Source: Candidatus Poribacteria bacterium (GTDB taxonomy: Bacteria; Poribacteria; WGA-4E; WGA-3G). From it: 64,000 bases of DNA. Both the position numbers and the translations under genes were made by a program. Shown in pieces: positions 1,150 through 44,500 of this stretch. The stretch's first letter is position 1. Every line of letters starts with the position of its first letter. The stretch lies in the NCBI GenBank assembly GCA_965242965.1, contig OZ251518.1, forward strand, positions 5,056,001 to 5,120,000. The letters run 5' to 3'. The notes beneath the pieces are model-generated. The model did not search any database and was not told the DNA's origin. It saw only the letters and a list, made by a program, of their open reading frames with translations.

Positions 1150-2742
1150 TTATCGGGCAATCAGAGTTATCACCCGATGCGGCTCGGTAGACGAGGGATG
1201 ATGCATGAGGATATCCTGCTTGCCATCCTTGTTGAAATCTACCAGCCATGTGTATTCTTCATGCGGCATCTCAACCTTTACCTTCTGAGGCCGCTTTGCA
1301 AACAACGCCGGTCCCTGCACCCCTAGAAAGACGCGCAACTCCTTCTCGCCTTTCTGTATCAGCAGGTCCGCGCGTTCATCGCCGTTCACATCCCCGATAA
1401 GCACAGAGGGATAGAGCGATCTTTCGCCTGTCCTGCCAGTCGTTTCCACTCGGATGGAACGGGAGATGGTGGGTTTGTCGGGGTAACTGCCGTTTTCCAT
1501 GCGATAAAACGTGAGTTCCATTGATACCGACCCGGTTACCAGTGAGTCAATAATCATGCCGATTGCCTTGAAGACGCGCGGTTTGAGGATTGTGAACATC
1601 AAGTCGGTCTGGCCGTCAAAGTCAAAATCGTGCTGCTCCATGCCAAACTGAATGCCATCAGACAGGAGTTCAGTGCTGACTTCCGGCGAGAACACGGTGC
1701 CGCCTGCGGGTGTCAGGTAACCGAAATGCACCGCGTAGATGGCGTGCATATCCCATAAACCGCCGTGCAGTGAAAACACCCCGAGGTCGGCGATGTTATC
1801 ACCGTTCATATCGGTGAACGCGTGGAGCACGCTTCCTGTCATTTTTCCGGTCAGCCCGTGGTCCTTCCTTCGTTGGCGGGTCCTGTGCGGTGCTGCAAGC
1901 GACGCAAGCGCGTCGGAGTCAAACGCCACGTCGGTAGTGAACGTCTCGGCTACCGGATTAAACACTCCCTGCGCGTTTTGGAGATGCACCTCAAAATGGG
2001 TTCCGTTCCAGAATCCCAAGTCGCCGCGTCCATCTCGGTTGTAGTCCATCTCGTGGATGCGGCTCTGCGTCCACGGTTGATGTCGATAGCCATCAACTGC
2101 ATAGAGGCTATTCATCTCGGTGGAGGTGCCGAGTTTCATGGGTTCAGCGAACGCGCTGTCGTTCAGTTGAACGAACACCCAGAAACCATCGAGGACTGGC
2201 ACCACCAGGTCATCGAGGCCATCGCCGTTTACATCATGAGTGATGTCGACATGCGGGATTGCGCCTGCGGGAGGTGGGTTGATAAACGCGACTTCCACCA
2301 GCACGTGTTCCGTTGCCGATTCAGGTTCAAACCAATTGAGGCGACCAGGGGTATAGGTAATCAGTCGATCTCGGCCGCCGATGTTCGCTACATCGACGAA
2401 GGACACTTCGGGATGCAGCGTTGCGTTGAATTTCGGCACCCAGGTCCCTTCGTCAAATTCATAAATGCGCACGCCCCGGTCACCGTTTACTACGACAATT
2501 TCCGCGACGGGACCACGGAGCAGGAACCCGGTCAAAATAGTCTGCTGTTTGGCGGTGCCGGTGATAACCTCGCTCTGTTGAAAAGCGAATTCCGCGGTGA
2601 CTACGGATGGCTGGAATCTGTCTCCCGCTTGCCCCATGCATCCCGATAGAAAGATGCCAAGTGCCAGGATGGGGCACCAGATTCGAGCACAGTTGGTTTT
2701 TGCTGAACGTCTGCGTTTGTGCAATACGTTTTGTTTTTTCAT
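1150..2742 (-). CDS. FG-GAP/VCBS-repeat lipoprotein
   Basis: Lipobox LSGC; repeated DVNGDGLDDL, DYNRDGRGDL, DMNGDNIADL, DFNKDGKQDI motifs. Confidence 0.85.
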   Translation of the reverse strand: MKKQNVLHKRRRSAKTNCARIWCPILALGIFLSGCMGQAGDRFQPSVVTAEFAFQQSEVITGTAKQQTILTGFLLRGPVAEIVVVNGDRGVRIYEFDEGTWVPKFNATLHPEVSFVDVANIGGRDRLITYTPGRLNWFEPESATEHVLVEVAFINPPPAGAIPHVDITHDVNGDGLDDLVVPVLDGFWVFVQLNDSAFAEPMKLGTSTEMNSLYAVDGYRHQPWTQSRIHEMDYNRDGRGDLGFWNGTHFEVHLQNAQGVFNPVAETFTTDVAFDSDALASLAAPHRTRQRRKDHGLTGKMTGSVLHAFTDMNGDNIADLGVFSLHGGLWDMHAIYAVHFGYLTPAGGTVFSPEVSTELLSDGIQFGMEQHDFDFDGQTDLMFTILKPRVFKAIGMIIDSLVTGSVSMELTFYRMENGSYPDKPTISRSIRVETTGRTGERSLYPSVLIGDVNGDERADLLIQKGEKELRVFLGVQGPALFAKRPQKVKVEMPHEEYTWLVDFNKDGKQDILMHHPSSTEPHRVITLIAR

Positions 2743-2781
2743 TTGCCTTCTCCTTAAATCGTTGATCCGTGGCATGTTATT

Positions 2782-3082
2782 GAGGGTGTTTCATAAATCG
2801 CTCAACGTCGCGGGGACAGGCCCCGCGCTACGGTGAAAAAACGCCGCCCTTTCACGTAGGGCGAGGGCCTGTCCCTCGCCATGCCACACGCGCAGGCGAG
2901 AGGGTTTCCCTCGCCGGGCGTTTTGCTGTCAGACCGCATCACCCCTGTAGGTCAAGATCGCCTGATCTTGACCTGTTCGGGATCGGGCGATCCCGAACTA
3001 CAGAGGTGGGCCCGAGGGCTTCTGGTATTCGACAGCCTTCCAAGGCGGGATAAATACCGAAACGGAGTTATGAAACACCCTC
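2782..3082. mobile_element. MITE-like element with REP cargo
   Basis: Terminal IRs GAGGGTGTTTCATAA / TTATGAAACACCCTC; perfect 8-bp direct repeat ATGTTATT at 2774-2781 and 3083-3090. Confidence 0.8.
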
Positions 3083-39212: not shown

Positions 39213-39435
39213 GTCCTATCATCAACCAGGGTTATAGTTGAAGGAGATTGCGAGGGACAGGCCCTCGCACTACGATAAGTCCCATCAACTAGGGTTATGG
39301 TTGAAGAGATTGCGAGGGACAGGCCCTCGCACTACGATAAGTCCTATCATCAACTAGGAGTATAGTTGAAGGAGATTGCGAGGGACAGGCCCTCGCACTA
39401 CGATAAGTCCTATCATCAACTAGGAGTATAGTTGA
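39213..39435. repeat. Tandem ~62-67 bp units, each a copy of the pheA 3' end plus a REP
   Basis: Four copies of TCATCAACTAGGAGTATAGTTGAA-like sequence separated by TTGCGAGGGACAGGCCCTCGCACTAC. Confidence 0.85.
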
Positions 39436-40522
39436 AAGCACCTCGCGGATATGAACCCAGACTCTTGACACTCCGACATAATTCTTCAAGCCGTTCCACA
39501 GCAGCGCGAACATGCGGTTCAGCGAGATGTCCATCCATCTCCACGAAGAAAATATATTCCCACGGTTCCGTGCGCGATGGCAAGGATTCTAGGTAACTCA
39601 TATTGAGCCCATGCTGCTGTAAAACGCCAAGCACCTGATACAGCGCGCCGACTTTATCACGAATCGTAAAAAAGAGGGATGTCCTGTCCGCGCCGCTCGG
39701 CTGCGCGTCGCACTCCCCGATAACGAAAAACCGAGTCGTGTTATTGGGCTCGTCCATGATGGAGTCGGCGACAACCGGCACCTGATAAATGTCGCTGGCC
39801 AGTTTGCTGGCGATGGCACCTGTCATCGGTTCCGCCGCCGCACGCTGTGCCGCGACAGAGGTGCTGACAACCTCTACCTGCTCCGTCGCTTTCATAAATC
39901 GGTTTAACCAGACACGACACTGCGCAAACGGCTGCGGATGCGAGTAAATCTTCTGGATTTCCGAGAGCGGCGACTTTGAAAGTAGGTGCTGTTTCACCGG
40001 TTGATAAATCTCGGCGCAAATCTTCAGCGGGGTGCCTTGGAAACGTTCCAACACATCGCGCACCGTCCCTTGCACCGAGTTTGCAATCGCTACCACCCCG
40101 TAGTCCGCGCGTCCCGCTTCGACTTCGGTGAAGATGTCGATTTGCGGCTGCACCGGGATGAGCGCAACCGATGAACCGAAATGACATAGACTCGCAAGGT
40201 GCCCGAAACTCCCGACAGGACCGAGGAACGCCACCCGTTCCGGGGCCTGCAGCGCGCGAGAAGCAGATAAAATCTCCGTCCAGACAGCCTCCACCGCAGC
40301 ATCGGAAAACGCCCCCTGTTCACCGTAGACTCGGTTGCACACCTTCAAGCGTTCAATAACTTCCCGATGTCGATGCGGAACATAGACGTTTGAGGTGCCT
40401 GCCTCTGTCTTGAAAGCACCTACCTGTTTAGAAATTTCCGCGCGTTTTTGTAACAGGGATAAAATCCTGTCGTCAATGTCGTTAATGGTGTCGCGATAAT
40501 TTTCGAGTTCAGAATTGTTCAT
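39416..40522 (-). CDS. pheA: Chorismate mutase / prephenate dehydratase (P-protein)
   Basis: N-terminal CM domain (YRDTINDID..LLQKR); FLGPVGSF, SHPQP, NTTRF; ACT domain ESLPSR..PWEYIFF. Confidence 0.95.
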   Translation of the reverse strand: MNNSELENYRDTINDIDDRILSLLQKRAEISKQVGAFKTEAGTSNVYVPHRHREVIERLKVCNRVYGEQGAFSDAAVEAVWTEILSASRALQAPERVAFLGPVGSFGHLASLCHFGSSVALIPVQPQIDIFTEVEAGRADYGVVAIANSVQGTVRDVLERFQGTPLKICAEIYQPVKQHLLSKSPLSEIQKIYSHPQPFAQCRVWLNRFMKATEQVEVVSTSVAAQRAAAEPMTGAIASKLASDIYQVPVVADSIMDEPNNTTRFFVIGECDAQPSGADRTSLFFTIRDKVGALYQVLGVLQQHGLNMSYLESLPSRTEPWEYIFFVEMDGHLAEPHVRAAVERLEELCRSVKSLGSYPRGAFNYTPS

Positions 40523-40561: not shown

Positions 40562-41045
40562 ATTGCGGGGGACAGGCCCCCGCGCTACGGTGCGAGTGGC
40601 GGCTGTCGTTGCATCCGGCGGAAAACCCCTCTTCTGTCCGTAGGGCGAGGGCCTGTCCCTCGCCATGCAGCGAACAGTTAAACCCCTCTTCTGTCCGTAG
40701 GGCGAGGGCCTGTCCCTCGCCATGCAGTGAAAGGCTAAACCCCTCTCGTGTCCGTAGGGCGAGGGCCTGTCCCTCGCCATGCATTGAGCGTGACAGAAAC
40801 CGTCTGGGCCCTCTGGGCTGCGGATGGGTTTCGCGCGGATCGAATGATCGCGGGGGACAGGCCCCCGCGCTACGGGGAAAACGGCGGCTTTCGTTGCATA
40901 CGGAAAAACCCCTGTCGCGTCCGTAGGGCGAGGGCCTGTCCCTCGCCATGCCCTGGGGCCCCCGAACGATCGCGGGGGACAGGCCCCCGCGCTACGGGCC
41001 AAGGACGGTATTCCTGTCCGTAGGGCGAGGGCCTGTCCCTCGCCA
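40562..41045. repeat. REP-like palindrome array
   Basis: Five GTAGGGCGAGGGCCTGTCCCTCGCC units plus three inverted GCGGGGGACAGGCCCCCGCGCTAC units. Confidence 0.85.
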
Positions 41046-41053
41046 CTCTGAAC

Positions 41054-41299
41054 CTACGCATTGAGTTTCTGCATGGCGGCAATCATCTCCTCGTCTGAGG
41101 GATTGCTTTCCACCATCTCAACGAACGCATCAGCGGTTAACTTGTGTTCCTCCAGGAACATCTTATCCTGCGGTCACGGGTAGATATACTCACCGATGAT
41201 GCCCTGCCGTTTCGCATTGGCTTTATCGGCAATTCGGGCTAACCACGGGATATTCCCGATGATCATATCCCGATGCCTCGGTTTCCAATCGAGTGACAT
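41054..41299 (-). CDS. DUF5069-like small protein, candidate selenoprotein (UGA = Sec at codon 42); not in ORF track
   Basis: AGGAGG RBS; MSLDWKPRHRDMIIGNIPWLARIADKANAKRQGIIGEYIYP[TGA]PQDKMFLEEHKLTADAFVEMVESNPSDEEMIAAMQKLNA*; TGA at 41174-41176 sits where I recall the family having YPCP. Confidence 0.8.
41145..41160 (-). promoter_or_regulatory. Putative bacterial SECIS hairpin
   Basis: UGUUCC-UGGA-GGAACA stem-loop; loop starts 19 nt after the UGA and has G at its second position. Confidence 0.65.
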
Positions 41300-41320
41300 G
41301 AATTTCACCTCCTTTCAGGT

Positions 41321-44300
41321 TTAGCGCGCGTTTTCCTCAAGTTGCCTCAAGGTTTGTTCTAAAAGTTCAAGATAACGGCCATATTCACCCCACTTCCCTG
41401 TCTGCTGCGCAGTTTGCGCCTGCTTAAAATAGCGATTCGCCTGCTCAACGAGTGCAGGCATGGACGTTTCGTCAGCAGACAGCGCGGGAACTTCTGTTCC
41501 GGGGCGCGTCGCCTCCGGCACAGCAGGAGTATCCACGCCGAACATCTTGATCAGTGCCTCGTCAAGGCTTTCACCCCAGACGACGCTCTCTTCGTAACCG
41601 ACAACAACACGCCGCAATTCCGGTATCGCTGTCTTCTCATCTTCCGATTGGATATAGATGGGTTCAACGTAAAGGAGCGAGTTGTTCATCGGCATAATCA
41701 GCAGATTGCCGCGGAGAACCCGCGAACCTTGCGTGTTCCAAAGGCTGATTTGCTGCGAGATATCGGGCTCTTGGCTGATAAAGTTTTCTACCTGCATCGG
41801 ACCGGATACCAATTTCCCCTTCGGGAAACGGTAGACGAGAAGCTGCCCGTATTGCGGAAGATCACACCGTGCCGCCAACCACGCTGTGAGATTCGGTTTG
41901 TTGCGCGGTGTAAACGGCAACATCAACATGAACTCCGCCTTCTCCTCGCCCGGCAGTTTGTTGACAACGTAGTAAGGTTCAACATCCTGCACGTTTGAAG
42001 GTGAACGTTGAACTACCTGAGGTTGCTGCGTAAACGGATTCGTTGACTGTGGCGGCGCGGGTTGCAGAAATTGCGGATCGGTGTTGTCATACAACTCCCT
42101 ACCGACTTCCCACTGGTCTTCGCCCGCATAGAATGTCACCGGATCGATCATGTGGTAATCCCTATAAACGTTCGCTTGGATAAGGAACATCCCCATCGGA
42201 TAGCGGATATGCGCCTTCAACTCCGCCGGCATCTCCGAAAACGGTTTGAAAAGATTCGGGAAAATCTTTTCGTAGCACGCCGCAATCGGGTCCTGCGCCT
42301 GAGCAACGTGGTAAAAGTTAACCGTGCCATCATACGCATCAACGACGACCTTCACCGAATTTCGGATGTAGTTCCCCCACGGCTCTCCATCGCGCTGGGT
42401 AGGCGGCACGGGCCCGAAAGTCCGCCGACGCGGTGTGAGCTCTCGCATGGACAGCGAATAGGGATACCGGTGCGTGACGGTATAAGCGTCAATCATCCAC
42501 ACGAGTCTGCCGTTGTGAAGGATAATGTAGGGATCTCCATCGTAGCGCAGGAAAGGTGCGATTTTACGAACGCGCTTCTTGATATTACGTTCATAAAGAA
42601 TCCGGCTCGTCGGCGTAATTTCGCCCGGCAAGATAATGTTGATTGCGTTATCAAACTTCAGCATGTAAACCAACTTGCGCCAGAACGACGCAAGCGGCAC
42701 CCCGCCTTTGCCTTGATACGCATTCGTGGCGTATTGCTGCCCCTCTTGCGGGTAATCGAACTCAAGCACGTTCTCACGCCGGTTCGGATGCACGATGACA
42801 TACCGGTCGGTGCGTTCACCATAGTAGATACGCGGACCCGGGTCATCGCTGAACCGGTGCGGCCAGTTATCCTCGTAGTCAATCGGCGGCAAGCCTTGGA
42901 TATACATATTCGGCTTGCCGTTATCGATCTCGTTGACAGGACTCAAAACCGCGCCATACCCGTGCGTATAGGTATAAGTCTGTTTATACCAATCGTTTCT
43001 AATTTCGGGCGGGAGTTCGTTGATGTTGAGTTCGCGCGCCGACAACATCACCTGCCGGATCTCGTCTCCAACCGCATATCTATCAATGTCAACATCGTAG
43101 AAGTCATATTGCGAACGCAATTCTTGCAGCTGCCGGAAGGTTCGGCGCAACGGCCGCCAATCCCAGAGACGAATGCTGTTAATCACCGCGGCATTGTCAG
43201 GCCCCGTGATGTCGCTGTAAGCGAGTTCCTCCGTGAGCGGATATTCCTGTTCTGTCACGGTATCCCCCTCTAACCCGTAAGCTTGGAGCGTCGCCTTGAT
43301 GTTATAGTTGATATAGTCTTTCTCCAACTCCTGTTTTTTCGGTTCAACCCGCCACGTCTGAACGAGCGTTGGGTAGAGTTGGCCGAGGATACCCGCCACG
43401 ATGAAGACTGCCAATCCGCCGAAGGCAAGCCTGTTTCGCCGCAAGAAGATGCTGATGAGGAATACCACAGCGCACAGCACTGTAAGCCCGAGCAGGAGAT
43501 ACAAAATCGGCAGGCGCGCTTTCATCGCCGCGTATCCGCCGCCAGCGCGCACCACATCGTTTGACGTATAGAGCAGGTCGAACATCGCGAACCGATAGTT
43601 CCACGCCCGGAAAAAGAGCGTGATGGCGACGAGGACGAACAGATGTGCCTTCACCGCAGGCGGCGGACGAAACTGAAGCTGGCTCGTATCGCCGGTGATG
43701 AGCCCATGAAAAAAATAGACGACGACAGAAAATAGCGTGACTAACAAGAACATCCCGAAGAACGTGCCGCAAATATACCGTTCCAGCGGCATCTTGAAGA
43801 CGTAGTAGGCGACATCCTTGCTGAAAATCGGGTCGCGAGCCATTGAGGTGAAAACCGCTTTCTGTCCTGCCTCTATCTGGATAGGCGTATCCAATTGGAG
43901 CGCGTTTTCTAGCACCGCTGCCACGCGCGCAGTCTGGCTATCTCCGCCATCAACTTGAACGTTGATTTCATCGCCGACTTGGAACTTCTTCGCCTGCGCT
44001 TCCAGCGGCGGGACCGGAATTTCGGTGGCATTGAGGGAGTCCTCTCCTGTGAGAATAGGCGTAGCCGACTGGAATTCCAGTCCATCGGCGTTCTGATAGC
44101 GCAACCAGAGTTCCCACCGGTCGCTGGCGGCATAACCCATGAAAATGCTGAAGAGGACCGCGAGCAGTGCCAACCCGCCGTAAATGAGTTGGCGCGTGTC
44201 GCTGCCACTTCCCAAGGAACCGCCGGTGAATTCCGTGCCGCCCATGAAAGCAGGGCTCAGATGCGCCGGTGTGAACCGATAGAGCAGCGCGAGGTTCGTC

Positions 44301-44500
44301 AAGAGAATTATCGCATAGACGACACCGACAATTATTCCCATGCCGAGTTGTGTCCAGAGGATTTTAGCGTAAACCCCGAGGTAGTTCACCATCTCGAACC
44401 AGAGGAAATCGGGATAGATGTTAATCCACGCGGCGAGACTGCCGACGAGCACCGCGAGAATGATAAATGTGATAATAGAACGTTTCATCCGTGAATCCAT
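41321..44500 (-). CDS. UPF0182 family membrane protein
   Basis: DFLWF, DPIFSKDVAYYVF, IRLWD, DVDIDRY, YTHGYG, PRIYYGE, NYIRNSVK, VLRGNLL, YVEPIY. Confidence 0.93.
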   Translation of the reverse strand: MDSRMKRSIITFIILAVLVGSLAAWINIYPDFLWFEMVNYLGVYAKILWTQLGMGIIVGVVYAIILLTNLALLYRFTPAHLSPAFMGGTEFTGGSLGSGSDTRQLIYGGLALLAVLFSIFMGYAASDRWELWLRYQNADGLEFQSATPILTGEDSLNATEIPVPPLEAQAKKFQVGDEINVQVDGGDSQTARVAAVLENALQLDTPIQIEAGQKAVFTSMARDPIFSKDVAYYVFKMPLERYICGTFFGMFLLVTLFSVVVYFFHGLITGDTSQLQFRPPPAVKAHLFVLVAITLFFRAWNYRFAMFDLLYTSNDVVRAGGGYAAMKARLPILYLLLGLTVLCAVVFLISIFLRRNRLAFGGLAVFIVAGILGQLYPTLVQTWRVEPKKQELEKDYINYNIKATLQAYGLEGDTVTEQEYPLTEELAYSDITGPDNAAVINSIRLWDWRPLRRTFRQLQELRSQYDFYDVDIDRYAVGDEIRQVMLSARELNINELPPEIRNDWYKQTYTYTHGYGAVLSPVNEIDNGKPNMYIQGLPPIDYEDNWPHRFSDDPGPRIYYGERTDRYVIVHPNRRENVLEFDYPQEGQQYATNAYQGKGGVPLASFWRKLVYMLKFDNAINIILPGEITPTSRILYERNIKKRVRKIAPFLRYDGDPYIILHNGRLVWMIDAYTVTHRYPYSLSMRELTPRRRTFGPVPPTQRDGEPWGNYIRNSVKVVVDAYDGTVNFYHVAQAQDPIAACYEKIFPNLFKPFSEMPAELKAHIRYPMGMFLIQANVYRDYHMIDPVTFYAGEDQWEVGRELYDNTDPQFLQPAPPQSTNPFTQQPQVVQRSPSNVQDVEPYYVVNKLPGEEKAEFMLMLPFTPRNKPNLTAWLAARCDLPQYGQLLVYRFPKGKLVSGPMQVENFISQEPDISQQISLWNTQGSRVLRGNLLIMPMNNSLLYVEPIYIQSEDEKTAIPELRRVVVGYEESVVWGESLDEALIKMFGVDTPAVPEATRPGTEVPALSADETSMPALVEQANRYFKQAQTAQQTGKWGEYGRYLELLEQTLRQLEENAR

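Follow-up and report, generated by a model that had tools for sequence, protein, structure and literature searches.

A predicted selenoprotein family of short DUF5069 proteins in Candidatus Poribacteria and other bacterial phyla

A single unannotated gene at 41299..41054 on the minus strand of a 64,000-nucleotide stretch of Candidatus Poribacteria DNA (the window: assembly GCA_965242965.1, contig OZ251518.1, positions 5,056,001 to 5,120,000) is predicted, from sequence comparison and with a probability of roughly 0.93, to encode an 81-residue selenoprotein in which the UGA at codon 42 is read as selenocysteine (Sec). Such a reading, first suggested by the original prediction, is now backed by conservation of the TGA and of a hairpin that follows it, by Cys-containing homologues, by selection on the downstream half and by the presence of the Sec machinery. 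The family would extend the bacterial selenoproteome with a member that is near-universal in one phylum of sponge symbionts and is also found in Chloroflexota, Latescibacterota and Gemmatimonadota, and the Sec position singles out one residue, in a domain of unknown function with a solved crystal structure, as the likely active site, a Cys-to-Sec exchange being among the few signs of a catalytic or redox role that can be read from sequence. The gene and its surroundings are laid out as follows.

41054..41299, minus strand: coding sequence of the predicted 81-residue short-form DUF5069 selenoprotein (ATG, 41 codons, UGA as Sec42, 39 codons, TAG)
41299-41297, minus strand: start codon ATG of the DUF5069 gene, read from the sequence
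41174..41176, minus strand: in-frame TGA (codon 42) within the motif Y-I-Y-P-U-P-Q-D, from frame reading and orthologue alignment
41145..41160, minus strand: SECIS-like hairpin, with stem UGUUCC (41160-41155), loop UGGA (41154-41151) and stem GGAACA (41150-41145), from sequence and comparison
41056-41054, minus strand: TAG stop of the DUF5069 gene, after 39 sense codons past the TGA
41308..41313, minus strand: Shine-Dalgarno-like AGGAGG, 8 nt upstream of the ATG, from the sequence
41321..44500, minus strand: upstream neighbour, UPF0182 membrane protein gene (Pfam accession: PF03699, 810 bits)
39416..40522, minus strand: downstream neighbour, pheA (chorismate mutase / prephenate dehydratase / ACT; Pfam CM_2, PDT, ACT)
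40920..41044, minus strand: span of two copies of the REP-like repeat GGCGAGGGACAGGCCCTCGCCCTACGGA (41044-41017 and 40947-40920), outside the gene, from the sequence

The ribosome-binding site AGGAGG, the 41 codons to the TGA and the 39 further codons to the TAG were all found in the sequence as claimed, while the distance from the UPF0182 stop to the ATG is 21 nt and not the 22 previously given. The TGA is also present in independent sequence data, contigs from four public runs (four studies) over 41046-41400 being identical at both the TGA and the hairpin. The 14-mer GTTCCTGGAGGAAC has a single occurrence in the 5.7 Mb genome.

Assignment of the product to DUF5069, initially made from a family motif, is upheld by a match to Pfam PF16798 that crosses the TGA (residues 7-77; E 9.8e-13; score 48.9 bits, cut-off 27), and by the motif itself, for which 90 relatives give the consensus WLxRMIDKARA...GxYxYPCPxD, their residue at the TGA column being Cys throughout. 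The protein does not comprise a full DUF5069 domain, covering profile positions 4-74 of 133 and ending at residue 81, and a short form of 80-100 residues is common to many relatives. An AlphaFold2 model built with the 90 relatives (pLDDT 94.5) places a beta hairpin at residues 13-18, followed by four helices (20-32, 43-51, 56-65 and 69-80), and the modelled product accordingly corresponds to the N-terminal half of the DUF5069 fold. Residues 3-81 of the model match 3omd (VIA Z 12.8, rmsd 1.2 Å over 79 residues; Foldseek E 7e-4, TM 0.85), a Cys-type DUF5069 protein from Leptospirillum rubarum, and beyond 3omd the fold searches gave no functional lead, with the next Foldseek match at E > 3 and the next VIA match at Z 3.5 (TetR-like noise). 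Cys-type DUF5069 proteins, 3omd included, share the fold and the motifs WLxRxxDKxRA and Y-x-C-P-x-D with the window protein, which differs from them in its predicted Sec in place of Cys and in ending after the first half of the domain.

Within the phylum, the DUF5069 gene was found in 169 of 176 species genomes, and among the matches listed all but one (G009) have a single in-frame TGA, at identities as low as 68%. A TGA-type orthologue set (n = 45) was assembled from two extractions, contributing 43 of 44 and 2 of 10 loci. Across 78 pairs, dN/dS is 0.094 for codons 2-41 and 0.144 for codons 43-79, the latter value indicating that the half past the TGA is translated and under purifying selection; the downstream half is thus conserved, and both the Pfam match and the fold extend across the TGA. 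In the sister family f8, codon 42 is TGC in seven and TGT in one of eight genomes. As selA is present in seven of these eight, the Cys forms sit in selA-bearing genomes, and Sec is therefore not obligatory for function.

Relatives outside the phylum were drawn from a protein library of 1.84 billion representatives, which yielded 162 relatives at E ≤ 0.001 and 175 aligned domain rows. The proposed alignment of the TGA with a family Cys holds here, as 113 of the 175 rows, and 3omd, have Cys at the TGA column; 12 rows show W, and 13 stop precisely at residue 41. Since all W rows come from short contigs, W at this column probably reflects gene callers applying code 4 to the TGA. Among species genomes, a scan gave 80 loci, with TGA in 27, TGC in 46 and TGT in seven, the TGA forms belonging to Chloroflexota, Candidatus Poribacteria, Latescibacterota, Gemmatimonadota and further bacteria. 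A tree of 114 distinct proteins, built on 77 columns and with many forks unresolved, requires at least four Sec/Cys changes, of which at least three are forced by well-supported branches, and places the Poribacteria records among the 80 loci inside the clade of the window gene.

The hairpin was originally described as a perfect UGUUCC-UGGA-GGAACA stem-loop; it is present in the window gene as described, although only five of its six base pairs are conserved in relatives. Its loop starts 19 nt past the UGA, or 22 nt where one codon is inserted, and GTTCC-TGGA-GGAAC occurs at equal distance in all TGA-type Poribacteria orthologues (n = 45), with a single GTTCT variant in which a G.U pair is kept. 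The hairpin is missing from all eight Cys-form Poribacteria genomes of family f8. Both TGA and hairpin are thus retained in relatives, within Poribacteria and in other phyla, as would be anticipated for a Sec gene. The F-L-E-E residues encoded by the hairpin are themselves conserved in Sec forms, so that nucleotide conservation is in part a protein constraint and the argument rests on synonymous sites. Among 44 distinct coding sequences, the synonymous entropy of codons 48-51 (TTC CTG GAG GAA) is 0, 0.16, 0 and 0 bits, whereas all other degenerate, conserved codons have 0.27-2.2 bits, and the sole synonymous change in the hairpin codons, CTG to TTG, preserves a G.U pair.

Folding energy gives no comparable signal, the region around the hairpin being no more stable than expected by chance against shuffles (z -0.54 for 76 nt, -0.67 for 51 nt), and the case for the hairpin consequently rests on comparison, not thermodynamics. 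The minimum-energy fold is a competing CAGGA:UCCUG pairing at -11.2 kcal/mol, against -6.4 kcal/mol for the hairpin. This pairing was rejected as a candidate structure, being unconserved, with codon 44 as CAA in 15 of the 37 sequences that have Gln there. No lower stem was detected by RNAalifold in 41 sequences.

As the hairpin is invariant within Poribacteria, covariation evidence comes from other phyla only. All non-Chloroflexota TGA forms carry NNN-UUCC-UGGA-GGAA-NNN, and those of Latescibacterota and Gemmatimonadota have the same loop and upper stem with compensatory changes in the lower stem. Over 34 distinct sequences, base pair 5 is GC in 28, CG in four, AU in one and GU in one, and is never unpaired; the covariation score of 0.200 compares with 0.068 in shuffles (none of 500 reaching 0.200) and with at most 0.079 in slid-partner controls. 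A different hairpin, GTGCTCGGTGAG (GCUC-GGU-GAGC), is found at the equivalent place in all six Chloroflexota TGA forms, whereas the 31 Cys forms that encode the same VLGEL use 18 codon strings, only one of the 31 having the string of the TGA forms. Two different hairpins are thus each tied to the TGA, and a single family would hold two unrelated SECIS solutions.

Sec insertion in bacteria depends on SelB-GTP, which, loaded with Sec-tRNA(Sec), binds a hairpin of the mRNA immediately 3' of the UGA; E. coli fdhF is the prototype of a selenoprotein gene whose intragenic SECIS is read by SelB. By the same route, SelB-GTP carrying Sec-tRNA(Sec) would bind the GUUCC-UGGA-GGAAC hairpin just 3' of the UGA of the DUF5069 transcript; the bound SelB would deliver Sec at codon 42, and translation would run on to the TAG. 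The gene resembles those of the fdhF type in its in-frame UGA, in a downstream stem-loop whose first two loop positions include G, in the existence of Cys orthologues and in the presence of selA, selB, selC and selD in the genome. It differs from them in that the hairpin has just 5-7 bp, a 4-nt loop and no conserved lower helix, and in that the DUF5069 family uses two hairpin types in different phyla. The bSECISearch description gives a distance range of ~16-37 nt for bacterial SECIS elements, into which the 19 nt (or 22 nt) of the DUF5069 forms falls, and the DUF5069 hairpin, at its -6.4 kcal/mol, is presumably weaker than the energy limit of the bSECISearch model.

The full machinery for Sec insertion, on which the original prediction depended, is encoded in the genome, with selA (577 bits), selB (331 bits), selC as a tRNA-Sec (78 bits) adjoining selB, and selD (358 bits), which has its own in-frame TGA at the canonical site, all over curated cut-offs; selA is over its cut-off in 163 of the 176 genomes of the phylum. 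Six more Sec sites were recognised in five other genes, each with a Pfam domain spanning the TGA. These six sites have hairpins of 5-7 bp with GG-containing loops that start 16-23 nt past the UGA, a shape shared with the DUF5069 hairpin, and when Sec-type SelD is taken with the five genes, the small GG-loop hairpins lie 12-23 nt past the UGA. In coordinates of the window's own genome (G000:C1), these genes are listed below.

G000:C1:1196316-1197120 and 1012925-1013725: AhpC/TSA selenoproteins (T-U-GFC and W-U-PFC), by Pfam
G000:C1:4286325-4287968: PSCyt1-WD40-HMA selenoprotein (GMT-U-GAC), by Pfam
G000:C1:1192428-1193675: exported protein of five HMA domains, the first two of which bear Sec, by Pfam
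G000:C1:3011286-3012266: thioredoxin-like selenoprotein (T-U-GAC), by Pfam
G000:C1:58854-59813: Sec-type SelD, by profile score

The genome scan from which they derive, combining TGA, hairpin and a crude coding score, was noisy (976 and then 243 candidates), and as the five genes were picked by hand and confirmed by Pfam, the list is an incomplete selenoproteome to which further genes may belong.

That the UGA is instead a true stop, with a 41-residue peptide as the only product and the downstream 39 codons untranslated or belonging to a separate element, is very unlikely, even though public annotation does end such genes at this point (13 library proteins stop at ...YIYP, one of them an NCBI record of 42 residues) and the hairpin is thermodynamically weak. 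Against it stand the dN/dS of the downstream frame, the dependence of both the Pfam match and the 3omd-like fold on the downstream half, and the continuity of the two halves in all Cys forms; a second open reading frame would, moreover, have neither a start codon nor a ribosome-binding site there. Read-through of the UGA as an amino acid other than Sec, whether as Trp under code 4 or 25 or as Cys or Trp by near-cognate suppression, would agree with the W shown at the TGA column by ENA gene calls in 12 relatives, but is likewise highly improbable. TGA is the stop of 659 of the 2561 open frames of at least 300 codons in the genome, from which it follows that the code is standard and TGA otherwise an ordinary stop; the aligned family residue is Cys rather than Trp, the W rows having the short-contig origin described above, the TGA is always accompanied by a hairpin at SECIS distance, and a complete Sec machinery and further Sec genes are encoded in the genome.

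Seen in one genome, a lone in-frame stop in a small open reading frame resembles a decaying gene, and a pseudogene or an assembly or sequencing error might be suspected. Such an origin is extremely improbable, given that the TGA recurs in all but one of the matches listed across the phylum and in four other phyla, that contigs of four independent runs contain it, and that both halves are under selection. Insertion of Sec at the UGA is the reading with which the conserved TGA, the hairpin and the Cys homologues all agree.

No publication naming DUF5069 or PF16798 was found among the papers searched, in keeping with the initial impression that the family has not been described as a selenoprotein. 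In a May 2026 survey of the prokaryotic selenoproteome (PMC13188914), Table 1 lists 119 families, none of them with a PF16798/DUF5069 domain or motif. Entries of that table defined by NCBIfam only are ruled out because the 81-residue protein matches no NCBIfam model at E ≤ 1. Neither DUF5069 nor PF16798 was found in the accessible part of the BSepDB supplement. From these sequence-based comparisons, short DUF5069 proteins very probably form a selenoprotein family missing from the newest inventory of 119 families. The closest parallels in that table are predicted single-Sec families (for example hypothetical proteins GOS_B, DG and DF), which are likewise small, of unknown function, marked by conserved UGA/Cys pairing and frequent among uncultured marine bacteria. 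The DUF5069 protein differs from the widespread UxxC and CxxU types in having no second Cys or Sec near its Sec.

Public records (P0002-P0018 and P0095) mishandle the family in two ways. On short ENA contigs, W is printed for the TGA, and other records end at ...YIYP, including an NCBI record from a Chloroflexota metagenome-assembled genome (MAG), sometimes with a false N-terminal extension. The annotation fault is thus systematic, the protein being either cut at 41 residues or given Trp for its UGA.

The predicted Sec42, originally proposed to belong to a redox or metal-binding site, lies directly before helix 2 of the model, in the invariant motif Y-P-(U/C)-P-x-D. The alignment of 90 relatives shows no variation at position 42 (as Cys) or D45 and almost none at R22, D25 and K26, a setting that makes Sec42 the probable reactive residue. 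As there is no second Cys or Sec, the site is not a CxxC-type redox centre, and Sec42 is likely, on the modelled structure, to act as a lone nucleophilic selenol or thiol at a helix start. In the three-domain DUF5069 protein of the same genome, the position equivalent to Sec lacks Cys (YGxxSGxD), which makes the Cys/Sec residue peculiar to one DUF5069 branch.

That three-domain protein is encoded at G000:C1:1522077-1523315 by a 423-codon frame with three tandem full-length DUF5069 domains (YGESSGLD, YGDASGQD and YGADSGMD). A still longer repetitive arrangement is found in library protein P0019, which has 13 matched DUF5069 repeat stretches in 2574 residues (14 domain rows on re-alignment). Domain fusions among 24 longer relatives are scattered and suggest no common theme: Cupin_2 occurs in three, and DUF2249, CO_deh_flav_C, DLH, a methyltransferase and a fragment of AA_kinase in one each.

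A lead towards function, albeit one of low probability, comes from a kinase-like gene. In 58 of 75 non-Poribacteria loci, an open reading frame of 300-360 residues lies directly upstream of the DUF5069 gene on the same strand, in at least five phyla (loci from Chloroflexota, Bacillota, Latescibacterota, Gemmatimonadota, Opitutales and further bacteria), its stop a median of 52 nt ahead of the conserved [WF]xPR motif. The encoded protein has the invariant Lys, Glu and D-x-N-x-x-N pattern of protein-kinase-like enzymes; Pfam APH matches it weakly (two of nine tested, E 1e-7 to 1e-8), NCBIfam gives faint matches only, and no curated Pfam or NCBIfam family claims it. Its profile matches corramycin phosphotransferase at 1.3e-9, and its model (pLDDT 90.1) resembles APH, choline-kinase and homoserine-kinase folds at TM ~0.5. 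With APH/choline-kinase-like enzymes such as corramycin phosphotransferase (8agy), APH(3')-VIII (4h05) and homoserine kinase (2ppq), the partner has in common the Lys/Glu/D-x-N-x-x-N residues and a two-lobe fold, and it is unlike these relatives in being claimed by no curated family.

Adjacency of the two genes is absent from Poribacteria, at 0 of 54 loci from the phylum genomes and 0 of five named Poribacteria loci, and the kinase is missing upstream in 15 of the 27 TGA-form loci of the 80-locus set. A full-length kinase homologue is nonetheless encoded in the window's own genome (G000:C1:2215752-2216858, hhalign probability 99.9), unlinked at 2.88 Mb from the DUF5069 gene and adjoining rpsB and tsf. 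Across the 176 phylum genomes, 166 have both genes, six have neither, three have the small gene only and one the kinase only; the six lacking both fall in three families and so represent few independent events, and one of these families, f5, is also without selA.

With low confidence, the short DUF5069 protein may act in one pathway with the APH/choline-kinase-like kinase, as its substrate, regulator or redox-sensitive partner. A more specific version, doubtful at present, would make it the selenol/thiol partner or substrate of the unnamed APH-like kinase in a two-gene module of at least six phyla, with phosphoryl transfer and a single reactive Sec/Cys acting on one shared small molecule or on one another. 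Were this so, the module would be a new kinase-coupled selenoenzyme system, in which the change of Cys to Sec, on at least two occasions and with two different SECIS hairpins, marks the residue as catalytic; the linked kinase offers a concrete experimental entry point for DUF5069. In three Chloroflexota Cys-form loci of one clade (L084, L093 and L104, ~2040-3025), the order on one strand is APH-like kinase, short DUF5069 and NIF3/DUF34.

Other neighbours were considered as functional clues and set aside, pheA being confined to Poribacteria, UPF0182 to family f1, and the surroundings elsewhere varied. Among 30 loci of family f1, 28 have UPF0182, originally proposed as a probably co-transcribed gene, on the upstream side; of the 10 loci from f6, f7 and f8, none does. 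Downstream, pheA is found on the same strand in 36 of 40 Poribacteria loci, including all eight Cys-form loci, and is thus a neighbour kept across the class; among the 80 loci of other records it occurs in four, all Poribacteria. Neighbours in other phyla differ, and include NIF3, GT2, MFS, OYE, SucC and RsmD, among others.

Between the DUF5069 gene and pheA, a 530-nt gap is partly filled by the pair of palindromic REP-like repeats. The REP-like core reads GCGAGGG-ACAGG-CCCTCGC, and an ACAGG loop occurs in 158 of the 976 TGA-plus-hairpin candidates genome-wide. Over 40950-41045, summed contig depth exceeds that of the DUF5069 gene by orders of magnitude, an excess indicating that the REP-like repeat belongs to a very abundant family.
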